Made by a program: the position numbers and the translations under genes
NCBI RefSeq assembly: GCF_054482595.1
Contig: NZ_CM137008.1
Length of the DNA stretch: 64,000 bases
Reading direction: 5' to 3' (one strand)
Shown here: piece after piece, positions 7,739 through 64,000 of the stretch
Position numbering within the stretch: position 1 is the stretch's first letter
Layout: the number at the start of each line of letters is the position of its first letter
The notes under the pieces: generated by a model
Database searches by the model: none
What the model was told of the DNA's origin: nothing
The model's input: the letters and a program-made list of their open reading frames with translations, nothing else

Positions 7739-10018
7739 ATGGATGACCAGTTAAAACAAAGTGCACTTGATTTCCATGAATTTCCAGTTCCAGGGAAAAT
7801 CCAGGTTTCTCCAACCAAGCCTCTGGCAACGCAGCGCGATCTGGCGCTGGCCTACTCACCAGGCGTTGCCGCACCTTGTCTTGAAATCGAAAAAGACCCG
7901 TTAAAAGCCTACAAATATACCGCGCGCGGTAACCTGGTGGCGGTGATCTCTAACGGTACGGCGGTGCTGGGGTTAGGCAACATTGGCGCGCTGGCGGGCA
8001 AACCGGTGATGGAAGGCAAGGGCGTTCTGTTTAAGAAATTCGCCGGGATTGATGTATTTGACATTGAAGTTGATGAACTCGACCCGGACAAATTTATTGA
8101 AGTCGTCGCTGCGCTCGAACCGACCTTCGGCGGCATCAACCTCGAAGACATTAAAGCGCCAGAATGTTTCTATATTGAACAGAAACTGCGCGAGCGGATG
8201 AATATTCCGGTATTCCACGACGATCAGCACGGCACGGCAATTATCAGCACTGCCGCCATCCTCAACGGCTTGCGCGTGGTGGAGAAAAACATCTCTGACG
8301 TGCGTATGGTGGTTTCCGGCGCGGGTGCTGCAGCAATCGCCTGTATGAACCTGCTGGTGGCTCTGGGGCTGCAAAAACATAACATCGTGGTTTGCGATTC
8401 AAAAGGCGTTATCTATCAGGGCCGTGAGCCAAACATGGCGGAAACCAAAGCCGCATATGCGGTGGTGGATGACGGCAAACGAACCCTCGATGATGTGATT
8501 GAAGGCGCGGATATTTTCCTCGGCTGTTCCGGCCCGAAAGTGCTGACCCAGGAAATGGTGAAGAAAATGGCTCGAGCGCCAATGATCCTGGCGCTGGCGA
8601 ACCCGGAACCGGAAATTCTGCCGCCGCTGGCGAAAGAAGTGCGTCCGGATGCCATCATCTGTACCGGCCGTTCCGACTACCCGAACCAGGTGAACAACGT
8701 CCTGTGCTTCCCGTTTATCTTCCGTGGCGCGCTGGACGTTGGCGCAACCGCCATCAACGAAGAGATGAAACTGGCGGCGGTACGTGCGATTGCAGAACTG
8801 GCCCATGCGGAACAGAGTGAAGTGGTGGCTTCTGCGTATGGCGATCAGGATCTTAGCTTTGGCCCTGAATACATCATTCCAAAACCGTTTGATCCGCGTC
8901 TGATAGTCAAGATTGCTCCTGCGGTCGCGAAAGCGGCGATGGAGTCGGGCGTGGCGACGCGTCCGATTGCTGATTTCGACGTCTACATCGACAAGCTGAC
9001 TGAGTTCGTTTACAAAACCAACCTGTTTATGAAGCCGATTTTCTCCCAGGCTCGCAAAGCGCCGAAGCGCGTAGTTCTGCCGGAAGGGGAAGAGGCGCGC
9101 GTTCTGCATGCCACTCAGGAACTGGTAACGCTGGGACTGGCGAAACCGATCCTTATCGGTCGTCCGAACGTGATCGAAATGCGCATTCAGAAACTGGGCT
9201 TGCAGATCAAAGCGGGCGTTGATTTTGAGATCGTCAATAACGAATCCGATCCGCGCTTTAAAGAGTACTGGACCGAATACTTCCAGATCATGAAGCGTCG
9301 CGGCGTCACTCAGGAACAGGCGCAGCGTGCGCTGATCGGTAACCCGACAGTGATCGGCGCGATCATGGTTCAGCGTGGGGAAGCCGATGCAATGATCTGC
9401 GGTACGGTGGGCGATTATCATGAACATTTTAGCGTGGTGAAAAATGTCTTTGGTTATCGCGATGGCGTTCACACCGCAGGTGCAATGAACGCGCTGCTGC
9501 TGCCGAGTGGTAACACCTTTATTGCCGATACATATGTTAATGATGAACCGGATGCAGAAGAGCTGGCGGAGATCACCTTGATGGCGGCAGAAACTGTCCG
9601 TCGTTTTGGTATTGAGCCGCGCGTTGCTCTGTTGTCGCACTCCAACTTTGGTTCTTCTGACTGCCCGTCGTCGAGCAAAATGCGTCAGGCGCTGGAACTG
9701 GTCAGGGAACGTGCGCCAGAACTGATGATTGATGGTGAAATGCACGGCGATGCAGCGCTGGTGGAAGCGATTCGCAACGACCGTATGCCGGACAGCCCTT
9801 TGAAAGGTTCCGCCAATATTCTGGTAATGCCAAACATGGAAGCTGCCCGCATTAGTTACAACTTACTGCGCGTTTCCAGCTCGGAAGGTGTGACTGTCGG
9901 TCCGGTGCTGATGGGCGTGGCGAAACCGGTTCACGTGTTAACGCCGATCGCATCGGTACGTCGTATCGTCAACATGGTGGCGCTGGCCGTGGTTGAAGCG
10001 CAAACCCAACCGCTGTAA
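7739..10018 (+). CDS. maeB: NADP-dependent malic enzyme (malic enzyme domain fused to a phosphotransacetylase-like C-terminal domain)
   Basis: 759-aa [26 protein letters not shown]...; divergent from talA. Confidence 0.95.
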
Positions 10019-21909: not shown

Positions 21910-22797
21910 ATGGATCAAAAACAGATTGAAGAAATTGTACGCAGCGTGATGGCGTCAATGGGACAAACGGCCCCCGCGCCGTCAGAAGCAAAGTGCGCCA
22001 CTACCACCTGTGCGGCACCGGTGACCTCGGAAAGCTGCGCGCTGGATTTAGGTTCCGCTGAAGCAAAAGCGTGGATTGGTGTTGAAAACCCACATCGTGC
22101 GGATGTGTTAACAGAACTGCGTCGCAGCACCGTGGCCCGCGTTTGTACCGGTCGTGCCGGTCCGCGTCCGCGTACCCAGGCGTTGCTGCGTTTCCTGGCC
22201 GATCACTCTCGTTCGAAAGATACCGTACTTAAAGAAGTGCCGGAAGAGTGGGTGAAAGCGCAGGGCTTGCTGGAAGTACGCTCCGAAATTAGCGACAAAA
22301 ATCTCTACCTGACTCGCCCGGATATGGGCCGCCGCCTGTGTGCAGAAGCTGTTGAAGCGCTGAAAGCACAGTGTGTTGCTAATCCGGACGTACAGGTCGT
22401 TATTTCTGATGGCCTGTCAACTGATGCCATCACTGTGAACTACGAAGAGATCCTGCCGCCGCTGATGGCGGGCCTGAAACAGGCCGGGCTGAAAGTCGGC
22501 ACGCCATTCTTTGTTCGTTATGGTCGCGTGAAGATTGAAGATCAGATCGGTGAGATCCTCGGCGCGAAAGTGGTGATCCTGCTGGTGGGGGAACGTCCGG
22601 GGTTAGGGCAGTCAGAAAGCCTCTCCTGCTACGCCGTTTACTCGCCGCGTATGGCGACCACCGTTGAGGCCGATCGCACCTGCATCTCTAACATTCACCA
22701 GGGCGGCACGCCGCCGGTTGAAGCCGCAGCCGTCATTGTGGATTTGGCGAAACGTATGCTGGAGCAGAAAGCATCCGGCATCAACATGACCCGATAA
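21910..22797 (+). CDS. eutC: EutC, ethanolamine ammonia-lyase small subunit
   Basis: 295 aa; N-terminal [17 protein letters not shown] is an encapsulation-peptide-like helix. Confidence 0.95.
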
Positions 22798-22806
22798 GGA
22801 GGCATC

Positions 22807-23466
22807 ATGCCAGCTTTAGATTTGATTCGACCGTCGGTAACCGCCATGCGGGTGATTGCCTCCGTTAACGCCGAATTTGCGCGTGAACTGAAATTGCCGC
22901 CGCATATTCGTAGCCTCGGGCTGATTTCTGCTGATTCCGATGACGTCACCTACATTGCCGCTGATGAAGCGACCAAGCAGGCGATGGTGGAAGTGGTGTA
23001 TGGCCGCTCGCTGTATGCGGGCGCTGCACACGGCCCGTCACCGACTGCCGGTGAAGTGCTGATTATGCTTGGTGGGCCAAACCCGGCGGAAGTGCGTGCC
23101 GGTCTGGATGCGATGGTTGCGCATATTGAAAATGGCGCTGCTTTCCAGTGGGCTAATGATGCGCAAGATACGGCATTCCTGGCACATGTAGTTTCGCGTA
23201 CCGGTTCTTATCTCTCATCAACCGCCGGGATCACGCTTGGCGATCCGATGGCGTATCTGGTGGCACCGCCGCTGGAAGCGACCTACGGCATTGATGCAGC
23301 GTTGAAATCTGCCGACGTACAGCTGGTGACCTATGTCTCGCCACCGTCTGAAACCAACTACTCGGCAGCATTTTTAACCGGTAGCCAGGCAGCGTGTAAA
23401 GCGGCCTGTAACGCCTTTACCGATGCAGTGCTGGAAATCGCGCGTAATCCAATCCAGCGTGCGTAA
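22807..23466 (+). CDS. eutL: EutL, BMC shell protein (tandem-BMC trimer)
   Basis: 219 aa. Confidence 0.95.
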
Positions 23467-51073: not shown

Positions 51074-52000
51074 ATGAATTATTCTTTAAAACAATTAAAG
51101 GTTTTCGTCACAGTAGCGCAGGAGAAAAGTTTTAGTCGTGCAGGAGAGCGTATCGGCCTGAGCCAGTCGGCAGTAAGTCACAGTGTGAAGGAGCTGGAAA
51201 ATCATACTGGTGTTCGCCTGCTGGACAGAACCACGCGTGAAGTGGTGCTTACAGATGCAGGGCAGCAGTTGGCTTTGCGTCTTGAGCGACTGCTGGATGA
51301 ACTTAACAGCACGTTGCGCGATACCGGGCGTATGGGGCAACAACTGAGCGGAAAAGTTCGGGTCGCTGCCAGCCAGACCATTTCCGCGCATCTTATTCCG
51401 CAATGCATTGCTGAAAGCCATCGCCGCTATCCAGATATTCAGTTTGTCCTGCACGATCGTCCGCAGCAGTGGGTGATGGAAAGTATTCGCCAGGGAGATG
51501 TCGACTTTGGCATCGTCATCGATCCAGGCCCAGTGGGCGATCTGCAATGTGAAGCGATTCTTTCCGAGCCTTTCTTTCTGCTTTGCCATCGGGATAGCGC
51601 TTTGGCCGCGGAAGATTATGTACCCTGGCAGGCATTACAGGGAGCGAAATTGGTGTTGCAGGATTACGCGTCAGGCAGCCGACCGCTGATTGACGCAGCG
51701 CTGGCGCGCAATGGTATTCAGGCGAATATTGTGCAGGAGATTGGACATCCGGCGACGCTATTCCCGATGGTAGCCGCAGGCATCGGCATCAGTATTCTTC
51801 CCGCACTGGCGCTACCATTGCCTGAAGGTAGCCCGCTGGTGGTAAAGCGCATTACGCCGGTTGTTGAACGCCAGTTGATGCTGGTGCGCAGGAAGAACCG
51901 TTCACTTTCCACCGCCGCTGAAGCGTTATGGGACGTGGTACGAGACCAGGGCAATGCGCTAATGGCTGGGCGGGAAGGGGATCCGTTGTATCAGATATAG
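51074..52000 (+). CDS. yfeR: LysR-family transcriptional regulator YfeR
   Basis: 308 aa; N-terminal HTH ([23 protein letters not shown]). Confidence 0.88.
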
Positions 52001-52332
52001 ATATCGATATGAGTCGTTTTTTCAACAGGATTTAGAAGGGATACATTCAGAGACAAACGCTGCTCTTTTTCCTGCGCCTTTTCTGCCTGCTGTCTCTGCA
52101 ACTGCGCCAGTTGTGTTTCCAGTAGGGTGATTTGCTGTTGAATCAATTCGGCCTGTTTTTGTTTGTCTTCAGCACTGCCGCTAGTGTCTACAATCTCTTT
52201 AATTTGTTGAGTGAGTTTGATGATTTGCTGACTTATCCGCGCGATTTGTGAAGCAACATCGCTACCTTGTGATGCCATGTTACTACTCTGTGTTTGTATG
52301 GAAGGAATTGAAGTTGAAGAGATAGTGGCCAT
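51991..52332 (-). CDS. FlxA-like small Gln-rich coiled-coil protein (hypothetical)
   Basis: 113-aa ORF; QQ-rich heptad-like region [35 protein letters not shown] resembles the prophage-associated FlxA family (recalled, not searched); overlaps the yfeR 3' end by 10 nt; start codon uncertain (internal Met at codon 19). Confidence 0.5.
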
Positions 52333-52408
52333 TGTTCAGTCCTCGTCACTGTACGAGGTAATATCGGTAGAAGAACAAGGAACTTGAGAAGAAAAATCAA
52401 TCTTACAA

Positions 52409-52469
52409 ATCGCAGATAGCAAAAAAGCGCCTTTAGGGCGCTTTTTTACATTGGTGGGTCGTGCAGGAT
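52409..52469. repeat. 61-bp perfect direct repeat of the lysV 3' end plus downstream terminator region (second copy at 52565-52625)
   Basis: Identical 61-mer atcgcagatagcaaaaaagcgcctttagggcgcttttttacattggtgggtcgtgcaggat at 52409-52469 and 52565-52625; includes the last 18 nt of tRNA-Lys. Confidence 0.75.
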
Positions 52470-52575
52470 GACTCGCTTCGCTCGCCCTTCGGGCCGTCGC
52501 CGCGAGCGGCTCCGTTGTTTCGCTGCGCTCAACTCGAACCTGCTGCAGGTTCGAATCTTTGAGTATCGCAGATAG

Positions 52576-52603
52576 CAAAAAAGCGCCTTTAGGGCGCTTT
52601 TTT
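52576..52603 (-). terminator. Rho-independent terminator of the valU-valX-valY-lysV tRNA operon
   Basis: On the minus strand: aaaaagcgccctaaaggcgctttttt immediately after tRNA-Lys. Confidence 0.6.
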
Positions 52604-52607
52604 ACAT

Positions 52608-52683
52608 TGGTGGGTCGTGCAGGATTCGAACCTGCGACCAATTGATTAAAAGTCAACTGCTCTACCAACTGAGCTAACGACCC
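52608..52683 (-). tRNA. lysV: tRNA-Lys (anticodon UUU)
   Basis: Reverse complement GGGTCGTTAGCTCAGTTGGTAGAGCAGTTGACTTTTAATCAATTGGTCGCAGGTTCGAATCCTGCACGACCCACCA, 76 nt with CCA end. Confidence 0.95.
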
Positions 52684-52687
52684 GAAG

Positions 52688-52763
52688 TGGTGGGTGATGA
52701 CGGGATCGAACCGCCGACCCCCTCCTTGTAAGGGAGGTGCTCTCCCAGCTGAGCTAATCACCC
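52688..52763 (-). tRNA. valY: tRNA-Val (anticodon UAC)
   Basis: Reverse complement GGGTGATTAGCTCAGCTGGGAGAGCACCTCCCTTACAAGGAGGGGGTCGGCGGTTCGATCCCGTCATCACCCACCA. Confidence 0.95.
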
Positions 52764-52809
52764 ACTTCGGTACTTCACATTGTTACAAGAAATTTAGCTG
52801 GCGAGAAAG

Positions 52810-52885
52810 TGGTGGGTGATGACGGGATCGAACCGCCGACCCCCTCCTTGTAAGGGAGGTGCTCTCCCAGCTGAGCTAATCACCC
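52810..52885 (-). tRNA. valX: tRNA-Val (anticodon UAC)
   Basis: Identical 76-nt tRNA-Val sequence. Confidence 0.95.
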
Positions 52886-52929
52886 ACTTCTCAATTTCTT
52901 GCTACACGGCGGAGACTACATAAAGTAGT

Positions 52930-53005
52930 TGGTGGGTGATGACGGGATCGAACCGCCGACCCCCTCCTTGTAAGGGAGGTGCTCTCCCAGCTGAGCTAAT
53001 CACCC
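52930..53005 (-). tRNA. valU: tRNA-Val (anticodon UAC)
   Basis: Third tRNA-Val copy (one base differs from the other two near the 5' end). Confidence 0.95.
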
Positions 53006-53263
53006 CCGCTGTGTGGAGTCGCATTATAGGGAGAGTTCAAAATGAGTCAACGCATTTTCTAAAGAAATTGTTCGTTCGTCGTAAATTTAAGCAAGATGAT
53101 CGCAAAACAGACCGTGTTGCGCAATTTGTCAACGAAAACAATAATGCGTAAGGTAGAAACCCGAACTACATTGAGGAATCAGGCGGGAGTGATAGAATAT
53201 CGCCCACTCAATTTTTCCAGGATTTGCCGGTTGTCGGCATCTTTCTAAACGTAAGGCCATTTC

Positions 53264-56102: not shown

Positions 56103-58292
56103 ATGTTTGTGGAGCATAACCTGATAAAAAATATCAAGATATTCACACTAGCGTTTACGCTCACCGTGGTACTTATTCAGCTTTCCCGTTTTATTTCGCC
56201 ACTTGCCATTATCCATTCCAGTTATATCTTTCTGGCGTGGATGCCACTGTGCGTAATGCTGTCAATCTTGTTTATCTTTGGCTGGCGCGGTGTCGTTCCC
56301 GTTTTATGCGGGATGTTTTGCACCAATCTGTGGAACTTTCATCTCTCTTTTTTACAGACTGCGGTCATGCTCAGCAGCCAGACGTTTGTCGTGTTATGTG
56401 CCTGCGCAATATTACGCTGGCAGCTGGGGACGCGTTGGCGTTATGGATTGACCAGCCGATATGTCTGGCAACGTCTGTTCTGGCTTGGTTTGGTGACGCC
56501 GATCGGCATCAAATGCAGCATGTATCTTGTGGGGAGCTTCTTTGATTTCCCGCTAAAGATATCCACCTTTTTCGGCGATGCGGATGCCATTTTCACGGTC
56601 GTTGATTTGCTAAGCCTTTTCACCGCGGTGCTGATTTACAACATGCTTTTCTACTATCTCACTCGCATGATTGTAAGTCCCCACTTTGCGCAGATATTGT
56701 GGCGCAGGGATATCGCTCCGTCGTTGGGCAAAGAGAAACGCGCATTTACCTTAAGCTGGCTGGCAGCGTTAAGCGTGCTGCTACTTCTGTTGTGCACACC
56801 TTATGAAAACGACTTTATTGCCGGTTACCTGGTACCCGTTTTCTTCATCATCTTTACCCTCGGGGTCGGTAAGCTTCGCTATCCGTTTTTAAATCTCACC
56901 TGGGCTGTTTCAACGCTTTGCCTGCTGAATTACAACCAGAACTTTTTGCAAGGGGTGGAAACCGAATATTCGCTGGCATTTATTCTTGCGGTGCTGATTT
57001 CCTTTAGCGTTTGCCTGCTCTATATGGTGCGCATTTATCATCGCAGTGAATGGCTTAATCGCCGCTGGCATTTGCAGGCGCTGACCGATCCGTTAACGCT
57101 CCTGCCCAACTTTCGTGCGTTGGAACAAGCGCCGGAGCAAGAGGCGGGCAAGAGTTTTTGCTGCCTGCGCATTGATAATCTTGAGTTTATGAGTCGTCAT
57201 TACGGGTTAATGATGCGCGTTCACTGTATCCGATCAATTTACCGTACGCTGCTGCCGTTGATGCAGGAAAACGAAAAGTTGTATCAATTGCCGGGTAGTG
57301 AACTGCTGTTAGTGCTGAGCGGGCCGGAAACGGAAGGGCGACTCCAGCATATGGTTAACATCCTGAATAGTCGGCAAATTCACTGGAACAATACCGGGCT
57401 GGATATGGGCTATGGTGCTGCCTGGGGGCGTTTTGATGGAAATCAGGAAACCCTGCAACCCTTGTTGGGGCAGTTAAGCTGGCTGGCGGAGCAATCCTGC
57501 GCACATCATCATGTGCTGGCGCTGGATAGCCGAGAGGAGATGGTTTCCGGGCAGACCACTAAACAGGTGCTATTGCTGAATACCATTCGCACGGCGTTAG
57601 ATCAGGGTGATTTGCTGCTCTACGCCCAGCCAATTCGCAACAAAGAGGGTGAAGGTTATGATGAGATCCTCGCGCGACTGAAATATGACGGCGGCATTAT
57701 GACCCCGGATAAGTTTCTGCCCCTTATTGCTCAGTTTAATCTTAGCGCGCGTTTTGATTTGCAAGTGCTGGAATCCTTGTTGAAGTGGCTGGCAACACAC
57801 CCTTGCGACAAAAAAGGCCCGCGCTTTTCAGTTAATTTAATGCCGCTCACGCTGCTGCAAAAGAATATTGCCGGGCGGATTATTCGTCTATTTAAGCGTT
57901 ATCACATCTCCCCGCAGGCGGTCATTCTTGAGATCACCGAGGAGCAGGCGTTTTCTAACGCAGAAAGCAGCATGTACAACATCGAGCAGCTGCATAAGTT
58001 TGGTTTCCGGATTGCGATTGATGACTTTGGCACCGGCTATGCCAACTACGAACGGTTAAAGCGTTTGCAGGCTGATATCATCAAAATTGATGGCGTCTTT
58101 GTGAAAGATATTGTCACGAATACGCTGGATGCGATGATTGTGAGATCAATTACCGATCTGGCGAAAGCGAAGTCATTGAGTGTGGTCGCGGAGTTTGTCG
58201 AGACGCAACAGCAGCAGGCGTTATTGCATAAGCTCGGGGTGCAATATCTGCAGGGGTATTTGATTGGTCGCCCGCAGCCATTAGCTGATTAA
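56103..58292 (+). CDS. pdeA: c-di-GMP phosphodiesterase PdeA (YfeA): MASE-type membrane domain, degenerate GGDEF and EAL domains
   Basis: 729 aa from ATG 56103 (MFVEHNLIKN...); hydrophobic N-terminal third; EAL-domain motifs near the C-terminus (QPI...DDFGTGYA). Confidence 0.85.
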   Translation: MFVEHNLIKNIKIFTLAFTLTVVLIQLSRFISPLAIIHSSYIFLAWMPLCVMLSILFIFGWRGVVPVLCGMFCTNLWNFHLSFLQTAVMLSSQTFVVLCACAILRWQLGTRWRYGLTSRYVWQRLFWLGLVTPIGIKCSMYLVGSFFDFPLKISTFFGDADAIFTVVDLLSLFTAVLIYNMLFYYLTRMIVSPHFAQILWRRDIAPSLGKEKRAFTLSWLAALSVLLLLLCTPYENDFIAGYLVPVFFIIFTLGVGKLRYPFLNLTWAVSTLCLLNYNQNFLQGVETEYSLAFILAVLISFSVCLLYMVRIYHRSEWLNRRWHLQALTDPLTLLPNFRALEQAPEQEAGKSFCCLRIDNLEFMSRHYGLMMRVHCIRSIYRTLLPLMQENEKLYQLPGSELLLVLSGPETEGRLQHMVNILNSRQIHWNNTGLDMGYGAAWGRFDGNQETLQPLLGQLSWLAEQSCAHHHVLALDSREEMVSGQTTKQVLLLNTIRTALDQGDLLLYAQPIRNKEGEGYDEILARLKYDGGIMTPDKFLPLIAQFNLSARFDLQVLESLLKWLATHPCDKKGPRFSVNLMPLTLLQKNIAGRIIRLFKRYHISPQAVILEITEEQAFSNAESSMYNIEQLHKFGFRIAIDDFGTGYANYERLKRLQADIIKIDGVFVKDIVTNTLDAMIVRSITDLAKAKSLSVVAEFVETQQQQALLHKLGVQYLQGYLIGRPQPLAD

Positions 58293-58300
58293 CAGGCGTA

Positions 58301-63159: not shown

Positions 63160-64000
63160 ATGACAAAGTATGCATTAGTCGGTGATGTGGGCGGCACCAA
63201 CGCACGTCTTGCTCTGTGTGATATTGCCAGTGGTGAAATCTCGCAGGCTAAGACCTATTCAGGGCTTGATTACCCCAGCCTCGAAGCGGTCATTCGCGTT
63301 TATCTTGAAGAACATAAGGTCGAGGTGAAAGACGGCTGTATTGCCATCGCTTGCCCAATTACCGGTGACTGGGTGGCAATGACCAACCATACCTGGGCGT
63401 TCTCAATTGCCGAAATGAAAAAGAATCTCGGTTTTAGCCATCTGGAAATTATTAACGATTTTACCGCTGTATCGATGGCGATCCCGATGCTGAAAAAAGA
63501 GCATCTGATTCAGTTTGGTGGCGCAGAGCCGATAGAAGGTAAGCCTATTGCGGTTTACGGTGCCGGAACGGGGCTTGGGGTTGCGCATCTGGTCCATGTC
63601 GATAAGCGTTGGGTAAGCTTGCCGGGCGAAGGCGGTCACGTTGATTTTGCGCCGAATAGTGAAGAAGAGGCCATTATCCTCGAAATATTGCGTGCGGAAA
63701 TTGGTCATGTTTCGGCGGAACGCGTGCTTTCTGGCCCAGGGCTGGTGAATTTGTATCGCGCAATTGTGAAAGCTGACAACCGCCTGCCAGAAAATCTCAA
63801 GCCAAAAGATATTACCGAACGCGCGCTGGCTGACAGCTGCACCGATTGCCGCCGTGCGTTGTCGCTGTTTTGCGTCATTATGGGCCGTTTTGGCGGCAAT
63901 CTGGCGCTCAATCTCGGGACATTTGGGGGCGTGTTTATTGCGGGCGGTATCGTGCCGCGCTTCCTTGAGTTCTTCAAAGCCTCTGGTTTCCGTGCCGCAT
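63160..64000 (+). CDS. glk: Glucokinase, 5' portion (gene continues past the window end)
   Basis: ATG at 63160; [52 protein letters not shown]...; ROK-like ATP-binding N-terminus; not in the ORF track because it runs off the edge. Confidence 0.9.

Follow-up and report, generated by a model that had tools for sequence, protein, structure and literature searches.

The duplicated tRNA-Lys 3' end downstream of lysV in Escherichia coli: very probably both ends of an RtT unit and not an integration scar

The 3' end of the tRNA-Lys gene lysV occurs twice in the stretch of DNA analysed here (hereafter, the window; 64,000 nt of contig NZ_CM137008.1, RefSeq assembly GCF_054482595.1), which raises the question of whether the duplication records the insertion and loss of a mobile element. 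The original prediction, made from the sequence alone, described a perfect 61-bp direct repeat with 95 bp between its copies, interpreted the duplicated tRNA end as the footprint of an integrase and regarded an adjacent 113-aa ORF as possibly prophage-derived. The description of the repeat was confirmed in all coordinates and numbers by a repeat search and ARAGORN. Two 100% identical copies of 61 nt are located at 52409-52469 and 52565-52625, 156 nt apart from start to start, and the 18-mer of the tRNA-Lys 3' end was found exactly twice in the 64-kb window (0.06 occurrences expected by chance). The features of the operon and its downstream region, in the order of transcription, are as follows.

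53023-53050, minus strand: sigma-70-like promoter upstream of the val genes, TTGACT-16-TATAAT (11/12 positions match)
52688-53005, minus strand: three tRNA-Val(UAC) genes, valU, valX and valY, preceding lysV (ARAGORN)
52608-52683, minus strand: lysV, tRNA-Lys(UUU), last gene of the valU-valX-valY-lysV operon (ARAGORN; Rfam tRNA model, 79.2 bits)
52565-52625, minus strand: proximal 61-bp copy, consisting of the lysV end and trailer, with the first intrinsic-terminator hairpin at 52577-52603 (repeat search, folding)
52470-52625, minus strand: 156-bp unit gained or lost between strains (0, 1 or 2 copies; allele comparison)
52470-52564, minus strand: 95-nt RtT core with a T-arm-like palindromic hairpin (GAUUCGAACCUGC / GCAGGUUCGAGU) and GC-rich hairpins (GGCCC-GAA-GGGC) (RF00391 alignment, folding)
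52452-52577, minus strand: match to the RtT RNA family, RF00391 (51.6 bits against a gathering score of 45, E 2e-9; model positions 1-130)
52446-52532, minus strand: 28-aa Arg-rich frame with a TTG start within the RtT unit, corresponding to that of the 'Tpr' protamine-like peptide at tyrT
52409-52469, minus strand: distal 61-bp copy, with a pseudo tRNA-Lys 3' end (52452-52469) that begins within the T-loop (repeat search)
52421-52447, minus strand: second terminator hairpin, identical to the first, in the distal 61-bp copy

The proximal copy comprises the last 18 nt of lysV (52608-52625) and a 43-nt trailer, which folds into a 13-bp hairpin followed by a U-tract (AAAAAAGCGCCC-UAAA-GGCGCUUUUUU). 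This terminator was missed by a terminator scanner because its A-tract pairs with the U-tract and leaves no free T-run; the hairpin was confirmed by folding.

The element that follows lysV is a member of the RtT family. Its match to the family model, which is on the lysV strand and begins 31 nt past the CCA end of this gene, exceeds the Rfam gathering threshold by only 6.6 bits, and the equivalent of 52452-52577 is annotated as 'RtT sRNA' by PGAP in the RefSeq records of a K-12-like genome and of strain XH990, the latter differing from the window by one mismatch over 12.8 kb. The RNA is predicted to fold with an energy of -67.5 kcal/mol (z = -5.4). Non-pair marks in the cmscan alignment showed that the outer stem of RF00391 is unformed in the lysV variant, a difference from the RtT of tyrT, with the inner hairpins retained. 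Across six lysV/lysQ-type units, RNAalifold detected compensatory change in 2 of 42 pairs; with so few compensatory changes, the conservation of the element could stem from gene conversion with other copies and not from selection on the RNA. The 28-aa frame is probably not a gene, and an RPEGR-containing frame is also found in the tyrT RtT unit.

RtT family members are expected to be freed from the primary tRNA transcript as discrete RNAs and to modulate the stringent response. That RtT repeats follow several E. coli tRNA operons and vary in copy number among strains is already known. The RtT/rttR repeats of the tyrT operon go back to Bosl and Kersten (1991; as cited in PMC4986893 and bioRxiv 10.1101/2024.07.17.603846), and the account of that work in PMC4986893 has the tyrT rtT RNA released by tRNA-processing nucleases. 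RtT elements adjacent to Asn and Lys tRNAs have been reported in Pasteurellaceae (PMC4986893). The unit at lysV and the tyrT RtT/rttR element (RF00391) are alike in that each lies directly 3' of the tRNA gene on the same strand, ends with the cognate tRNA 3' end from the T-loop on, can be tandemly repeated, passes the gathering threshold of Rfam and is called RtT sRNA by PGAP; furthermore, their GC-rich cores are homologous (CGGCCCGAAGGGCGAG...CGAAGCGA). They differ in length (156 bp at lysV vs. 178 bp at tyrT, where each unit ends with the tRNA-Tyr 3' end), in number (one at lysV in the window vs. three plus one at tyrT) and in Rfam score (51.6 vs. ~135 bits). In addition, the lysV repeat includes a complete intrinsic terminator, unlike that of tyrT, so that the RtT core is located between two terminators. 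The 61-bp repeat is thus very likely to be the two ends of a single RtT unit downstream of lysV and not an integration scar.

Similar modules were found elsewhere in the chromosome. The lysQ trailer at the end of the lysT operon (lysT-valT-lysW-valZ-lysY-lysZ-lysQ), a different locus adjoining nadA, carries a near-identical terminator-RtT-terminator module with the same succession of tRNA-Lys, terminator, core and second terminator and a single mismatch over the unit; its distal repeat copy measures 55 nt against 61 nt at lysV, which keeps 7 extra nt (CTGCGAT). An RtT core with a pseudo 3' end is also present in each of the lysT-operon spacers and in the tyrT-tyrV spacer; in the internal spacers of the lysT operon, only the 18-nt pseudo 3' end is present, without the terminator. 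The lys-type core was found at a median of two places per genome.

In the tyrT and lysT operons, complete tandem tRNA genes are separated by the same module, which could suggest that the core derives from a second, decayed tRNA gene and its spacer, with only the last 18 nt of that gene kept identical to the functional one, and the T-arm-like sequence of the core indeed fits the cognate tRNA (CCTGC/GCAGG for Lys, CCTTC/GAAGG for Tyr). This origin is nevertheless very unlikely. The tRNA covariance model gave no match in the lysV or tyrT RtT units even at E <= 10, leaving a degenerate tRNA unsupported, and ARAGORN found no pseudo-tRNA in the lysV unit. Moreover, the 95-nt core does not correspond in length to the 58 nt of tRNA that are missing, and the Lys core is homologous to the Tyr core, whereas neither resembles its own tRNA body. 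Another conceivable, although doubtful, origin is that RtT is a small non-autonomous module, in which a conserved core of ~95 nt is fused to the end of whichever tRNA it adjoins and which has spread among tRNA operons by recombination at the T-loop GGTTCGAATCC; this sequence is near-universal, and selection would, no less speculatively, preserve the module for a role such as processing, decoy or termination. In that case, the lysV repeat would exemplify an undescribed T-loop-directed spreading. The junction always lies in the T-loop, and the Lys and Tyr cores are related to each other and not to tRNAs, which is consistent with such a module, as is the far better conservation of the unit between genera than that of neighbouring spacer DNA.

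The DNA on the far side of the repeat, between lysV and yfeR, differs between strains, as stated in the original prediction, and its features in the window are as follows.

51074-52000, plus strand: yfeR, LysR-family regulator, left boundary of the variable cassette
52002-52405, no strand assigned: flxA-like cassette, 404 bp; K-12-type strains have 4398 bp (yfeN-xapA-xapB-DUF1427-xapR) instead
51991-52332, minus strand: FlxA-like protein gene, 113 aa, convergent with yfeR, whose final 10 nt it overlaps at its 3' end (Pfam PF14282)
52361-52387, minus strand: putative sigma-28 (FliA) promoter of the flxA-like gene, TCAAGTTC-N11-ACCGATAT (upstream alignment)

Homology to the K-12-like locus stops at 52001 and resumes at 52406. 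The statement of the original prediction that yfeN-xapA-xapB-xapR lies between yfeR and lysV in K-12 and is missing from the window proved correct for the K-12-like genome. Among 5426 genomes, the flxA-like cassette was present in 1305 and the 4.4-kb yfeN-xapABR block in 4084. The xap block also adjoins lysV in Salmonella, E. albertii and E. fergusonii, and orthologues of the flxA-like gene occupy the same lysV-yfeR position in Pseudocitrobacter, Kluyvera and Pluralibacter, which have the order gltX-val-lysV-(RtT)-flxA-like-yfeR-yfeH in common. Each cassette is thus found at this position in other genera as well, and the two are old alternative alleles. No att repeats were found flanking either cassette, and the conserved flanks have most likely allowed the cassettes to be exchanged by homologous recombination, with no site-specific mobile element involved.

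The RtT unit varies in copy number on both of these backgrounds. The window carries one unit, the L004 locus none and the L003 locus (strain LAM_HS) two; the latter two alleles correspond to the window minus and plus exactly 156 bp (52470-52625), respectively. At least one unit was present in 379 of the 1305 flxA-type genomes and in at least 1911 of the 4084 xap-type genomes, the second count being a minimum, since megablast may miss divergent xapR alleles; these population counts depend on coverage thresholds. Alleles with 0, 1 and 2 copies exist in exact 156-bp register on both cassette backgrounds, which suggests tandem-repeat gain and loss through recombination between the 61-bp copies. 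Alternatively, the lysV unit may be non-native and pasted from the lysQ module by gene conversion or ectopic recombination, with the identical tRNA-Lys and terminator as homology, in which case presence and absence would reflect repeated conversion and not local slippage. The tRNA and terminator shared with the lysQ module, the single nucleotide that separates that module from the window's unit and the median of two lys-type cores per genome agree with such a transfer, as does a Pseudocitrobacter MAG contig in which a lysT-like array is joined directly to flxA-like-yfeR. However, the seven nucleotides CTGCGAT in the distal copy at lysV are missing from that at lysQ, and the unit is also present at lysV in other genera: the repeats of Kluyvera georgiana (73 nt) and Pseudocitrobacter faecalis (57 nt) begin at the same T-loop position with a spacing of 156-157 bp, and their two copies have diverged locally to 95-98% identity, which indicates that the unit has long been resident at lysV. 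In the alignment of lysV/lysQ-type units, RtT is ~90% conserved across genera, including Kluyvera and Pseudocitrobacter, whereas the nearby spacer upstream of the flxA-like gene is scrambled. An ectopic source is thus improbable, and it would supplement the explanation by an RtT tandem repeat without replacing it.

Under the integrase interpretation, the 3' end of lysV once received an island or prophage through the action of a tyrosine integrase, and most of this element was later lost, leaving the repeats as attL and attR and the flxA-like gene as a remnant. The repeats do share with the attL/attR of tRNA-integrated islands and prophages a duplicated tRNA 3' end with its boundary inside the T-loop, a common crossover position of integrases. 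Moreover, K-12 FlxA is encoded in the Qin prophage, and the flxA-like ORF matches phrog_11044 of PHROG (E 4.4e-8). In contrast to att sites, however, the lysV repeats extend 43 nt past the tRNA, through the terminator, and enclose merely 95 bp, namely an RtT core common to the tyrT and lysT operons. They occur with either cassette and in Kluyvera and Pseudocitrobacter, so the duplication is not confined to one cassette, and their 0, 1 or 2 copies in register indicate tandem-repeat dynamics. The near-identical XH990 record has no annotated integrase, transposase or phage gene across the window.

The position of the copies relative to the variable DNA also argues against the integrase interpretation. 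In the K-12-like locus, this repeat pair also lies beside xapR, towards lysV (8004-8064 and 8160-8220 of that locus sequence), which, by the reasoning of the original prediction itself, makes the duplication something other than a variable scar. In the window and in K-12, the cassette has both copies on its lysV side; the variable DNA is thus not bracketed by them, and the interpretation of the duplicated tRNA end as an integrase footprint is not supported. A variant in which the repeats bracket the xap block was rejected, since the 18-mer and the 61-mer occur solely as an adjacent pair in the window and in K-12; no third tRNA-Lys fragment was found at the yfeR side in either. A literature search for an island at lysV returned nothing relevant. 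Integration at lysV is thus a highly improbable source of the repeats, although the location of the boundary in the T-loop, a typical crossover site of integrases, leaves room for a different role of such enzymes: the RtT family as a whole may have an ancient recombinase-mediated origin.

The assignment of the 113-aa ORF to the FlxA family held. Residues 15-92 match positions 4-82 of the 101-position PF14282 model (E 3.6e-14, 53.2 bits), and BLASTP against K-12 FlxA, a FliA-dependent member of the same family, gave 43% identity over 74 aa (E 3e-12); the C-terminal IDIY(I/V) motif is conserved in both proteins. NCBIfam models yielded only weak coiled-coil noise, and the protein search covered eight close relatives only. 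The supposed prophage origin of the ORF was not borne out. Whereas FlxA of K-12 resides in Qin, the gene in the window is a chromosomal paralogue at a fixed lysV-yfeR site in several genera. A tblastn search against 50,697 phage records gave no match at E <= 1e-3, with the low-complexity filter possibly lowering sensitivity. Given this result and the synteny in three other genera, the prophage-remnant explanation was rejected; the flxA-like gene is an old chromosomal gene and not mobile DNA.

The transcribed (minus) strand carries, in order, lysV, the 43-nt trailer with its terminator, the 95-nt RtT core, the 18-nt pseudo tRNA-Lys 3' end and the same trailer and terminator again, followed by the presumed sigma-28-type promoter and the flxA-like gene converging on yfeR, a layout that corresponds to those of the classical tyrT locus and the lysQ end of the lysT operon. 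Changes in copy number could arise from RecA-type unequal crossing-over or replication slippage between the 61-bp repeats, possibly with a contribution of gene conversion with the near-identical lysQ module, and the same recombination or conversion would explain why the two copies stay identical in E. coli. By analogy with the tyrT rtT RNA, the RtT RNA at lysV would be produced only through read-through of the first terminator and subsequent release by a tRNA-processing nuclease. Given its position behind a strong terminator, this RNA may hardly be made at lysV.

These results caution that a duplicated tRNA 3' end alone is not equivalent to an integration scar. RtT repeats mimic the signature of such scars in enterobacterial tRNA operons and should be masked before tRNA-anchored searches for genomic islands. 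In addition, the polymorphism at lysV, where unit number (0, 1 or 2) differs among thousands of E. coli genomes with two cassette types, offers a convenient natural system for short-repeat recombination.

The putative sigma-28 promoter of the flxA-like gene is suggested by a phylogenetic footprint. In an alignment of 10 upstream sequences, TCAAG...GCCGATA formed the only conserved blocks, and it aligns with the FliA site of K-12 flxA (TAAAGATT-N11-GCCGATAG), at which FliA binding has been detected by ChIP (PMC4183435). The syntenic flxA-like genes of the three other genera share this putative sigma-28-type promoter. A scan of the window with the sigma-28 consensus gave two hits, against a mean of 2.0 in shuffled sequences, and the match to the consensus is thus at chance level; the claim therefore rests on the footprint. 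The chromosomal flxA paralogue, with its conserved, putative flagellar sigma-28-type promoter, replaces the xanthosine (xap) genes in approximately one quarter of E. coli, among them O157:H7 and HS-type strains, and this exchange would make strains differ in nucleoside catabolism and in their predicted FliA regulon.

The sequence between yfeR and lysV in the window contained a real and well-defined feature that is already catalogued, both as an Rfam family (RF00391) and under the PGAP names "RtT sRNA" and "FlxA-like family protein". Its components are as follows.

51991-52332, minus strand: FlxA-like ORF of 113 aa (Pfam FlxA PF14282, E 3.6e-14)
52446-52532, minus strand: 28-aa Arg-rich frame MSAAKQRSRSRRRPEGRAKRVILHDPPM with a TTG start, inside the RtT unit
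52452-52577, minus strand: RtT RNA (RF00391; full-length match, Rfam 51.6 bits vs. a gathering score of 45)
52608-52683, minus strand: lysV, tRNA-Lys(UUU), preceded by three tRNA-Val genes

The direct repeat of the tRNA-Lys 3' end described in the original prediction was confirmed to the base: the two 61-nt copies (52409-52469 and 52565-52625) were 100% identical and lay 156 nt apart from start to start, with 95 bp between them. The proximal copy consisted of the 18 terminal nt of lysV, which had two exact occurrences in the window against 0.06 expected, and a 43-nt trailer in which a 13-bp hairpin followed by a U-tract formed a textbook intrinsic terminator. On the transcribed strand, the order was the 43-nt trailer with its terminator, a 95-nt core with GC-rich hairpins and a palindromic hairpin resembling a T-arm, an 18-nt pseudo tRNA-Lys 3' end starting within the T-loop, and the trailer and terminator again. 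The RtT RNA was predicted to fold well (-67.5 kcal/mol, z = -5.4). The RefSeq/PGAP annotation "RtT sRNA" stood at the same position in strain XH990, whose record showed a single-nucleotide difference from the window across 12.8 kb and differences of 1-3 nt elsewhere. In the literature, RtT is an RNA that is freed from the transcripts of tRNA operons and for which a role in the stringent response has been proposed (PMC4986893; bioRxiv 10.1101/2024.07.17.603846). A protamine-like peptide, 'Tpr', has been predicted in the tyrT repeats (...RRQRPEGRSAQR), and the 28-aa frame matched its frame; the 28-aa frame is probably incidental to the conservation of the GC-rich sequence.

The architecture of the lysV unit was shared with the tyrT locus, where four RtT units scored ~135 bits each; one formed the tyrT-tyrV spacer and three followed tyrV, each ending in a tRNA-Tyr 3' end. 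In the lysT operon of strain Ec-050 (L017:1483-2737), each spacer after a tRNA-Lys gene likewise comprised an RtT-like core and a pseudo tRNA-Lys 3' end. The pseudo 3' end measured 18-19 nt in these spacers and in the tyrT-tyrV spacer (L018:5131-6043). Downstream of lysQ, the last gene of the lysT operon, a terminator-RtT-terminator module differed from the unit of the window by 1 nt. In a Pseudocitrobacter MAG contig (CAJYVI010000110.1; L006:1-1100), a lysT-like array (Lys, RtT, Val, Lys, Lys, Lys) abutted flxA-like-yfeR; either the lysQ and lysV modules recombined, or the assembly is chimeric across the tRNA-Lys and terminator that they share.

The duplicated tRNA end had been interpreted as the footprint of integrase-mediated integration or excision. 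This reading was rejected on five grounds, namely the pair in K-12, its placement, its presence in other genera, the register of the copies and the lack of mobility genes. A K-12-like genome carried the repeat pair and RtT right beside xapR (L002:8004-8064 and 8160-8220, one mismatch); the duplication thus occurs irrespective of whether the xap block is missing. The window and K-12 were homologous up to 52001, one base past the yfeR stop, and again from 52406, three bases short of the distal copy. The variable DNA thus has both copies on its lysV side, and no further tRNA-Lys fragment was found at the yfeR side in the window or in the K-12-like genome. In Kluyvera georgiana and Pseudocitrobacter faecalis, the repeat at lysV began at the same T-loop base with 156-157 bp spacing and 95-98% identity between copies, indicating that the structure is older than E. 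coli. No integrase, transposase or phage gene was annotated across the whole window, as judged from the near-identical XH990 record. The sole att-site-like feature was the T-loop boundary of the repeat, which is common to all RtT units and thus bears on the origin of the family, not on a recent event at lysV.

The number of RtT units at lysV varied among strains (none in MB06233 and CFT073, one in the window and K-12, two in LAM_HS), and the 0- and 2-unit alleles equalled the window sequence with exactly 156 bp removed or added, respectively. Among 5426 complete E. coli genomes, 5389 carried one of two alternative cassettes between yfeR and lysV. At least one unit at lysV was present in 379 of the 1305 genomes with the flxA-like cassette and in at least 1911 of the 4084 with the xap cassette, the latter count being a minimum, since megablast may miss divergent xapR alleles. 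The occurrence of genomes with and without the unit in both cassette groups implies that it was repeatedly gained and lost or was shuffled. Most simply, the changes would arise when the 61-bp repeats undergo unequal crossing-over or slippage, and conversion from the lysQ module may have contributed.

The junction is thus strain-variable, as originally predicted; its variation resembles the replacement of alleles through homologous recombination and not the suggested mobile-element activity. The cassette breakpoints fell at functional limits, one at the yfeR stop codon and the other at the lysV terminator module, and no repeats flanked the cassette. The xap block adjoined lysV, with no flxA-like gene there, in Salmonella enterica, E. 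albertii and E. fergusonii; therefore, neither arrangement is confined to a single species. yfeR was altogether missing from E. albertii and E. fergusonii. The E. coli alleles of xapR (L002:7054-7938; L005:6052-6936, an xap-type locus), a gene absent from the window, were unusually divergent, and identity across the xapR-lysV junction fell into bands of >=99%, 90-95% and 80-90%. K-12 XapR shared 89% identity with some Salmonella XapR proteins and only 76-79% with those of E. fergusonii and E. albertii and with a second E. coli allele, a pattern suggestive of inter-species recombination at the locus. E. coli yfeR (window 51074-52000) was 87% identical to that of P. faecalis at the nucleotide level (95-96% aa) and 73% to that of Salmonella (79.5% aa); the flanking yfeH showed ~80% nucleotide identity to both. 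These values are signs of inter-species exchange in the lysV-yfeR region. In xap-type strains, the stretch separating the xapR stop from the distal terminator copy (L002:7940-8003, L005:6940-7010) contained a palindrome that we take to be REP-like (...CTGATAAGCGAAGCGCATCAGGCA...), right on the cassette boundary.

The proposed FlxA-family resemblance of the 113-aa ORF held, and its protein shared 43% identity with FlxA, a Qin prophage protein of K-12, with a C-terminal IDIY(I/V) motif common to both. The further reading of this ORF as a prophage remnant did not. The protein had no match among 50,697 phage records, and orthologues occupied the same slot (gltX-valUXY-lysV-(RtT)-flxA-like-yfeR-yfeH) in Pseudocitrobacter (81-88% aa identity), Kluyvera (55-70%) and Pluralibacter (~60%); the copy in the window is not prophage-borne. 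Upstream of the gene, the only conserved blocks were TCAAG...N...GCCGATA, which align with the K-12 flxA promoter, bound by FliA in ChIP-seq (PMC4183435). Because the match to the sigma-28 consensus was at chance level within the window, we infer a putative sigma-28 promoter here from conservation. The only other sigma-28-like match in the window, again a chance-level count, was in the yfeO-glk intergenic region (63509-63535, plus strand; TTCAGTTT-N11-GCCGATAG, 13/16 positions).

The lysV-yfeR junction is not the sole spot in the window that varies relative to K-12, contrary to what had been supposed, since an IS4-like IS421 transposase separates pdeA from nupC in the K-12-like genome (L002:14088-15200) and is missing from the window (~57950-58300). 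Taxa also differed in how many tRNA-Val genes precede lysV (window 52688-53005; loci L020, L021 and L010), with three in E. coli, Salmonella, P. faecalis, Pluralibacter and three Kluyvera species, two in E. albertii and E. fergusonii, and at least four in Kluyvera sichuanensis, whose contig begins inside the array. The 50.9-kb E. coli plasmid NZ_CP195334.1 carried 101 bp of the yfeR 3' end (22748-22848) at 99% identity, annotated as a LysR family regulator.
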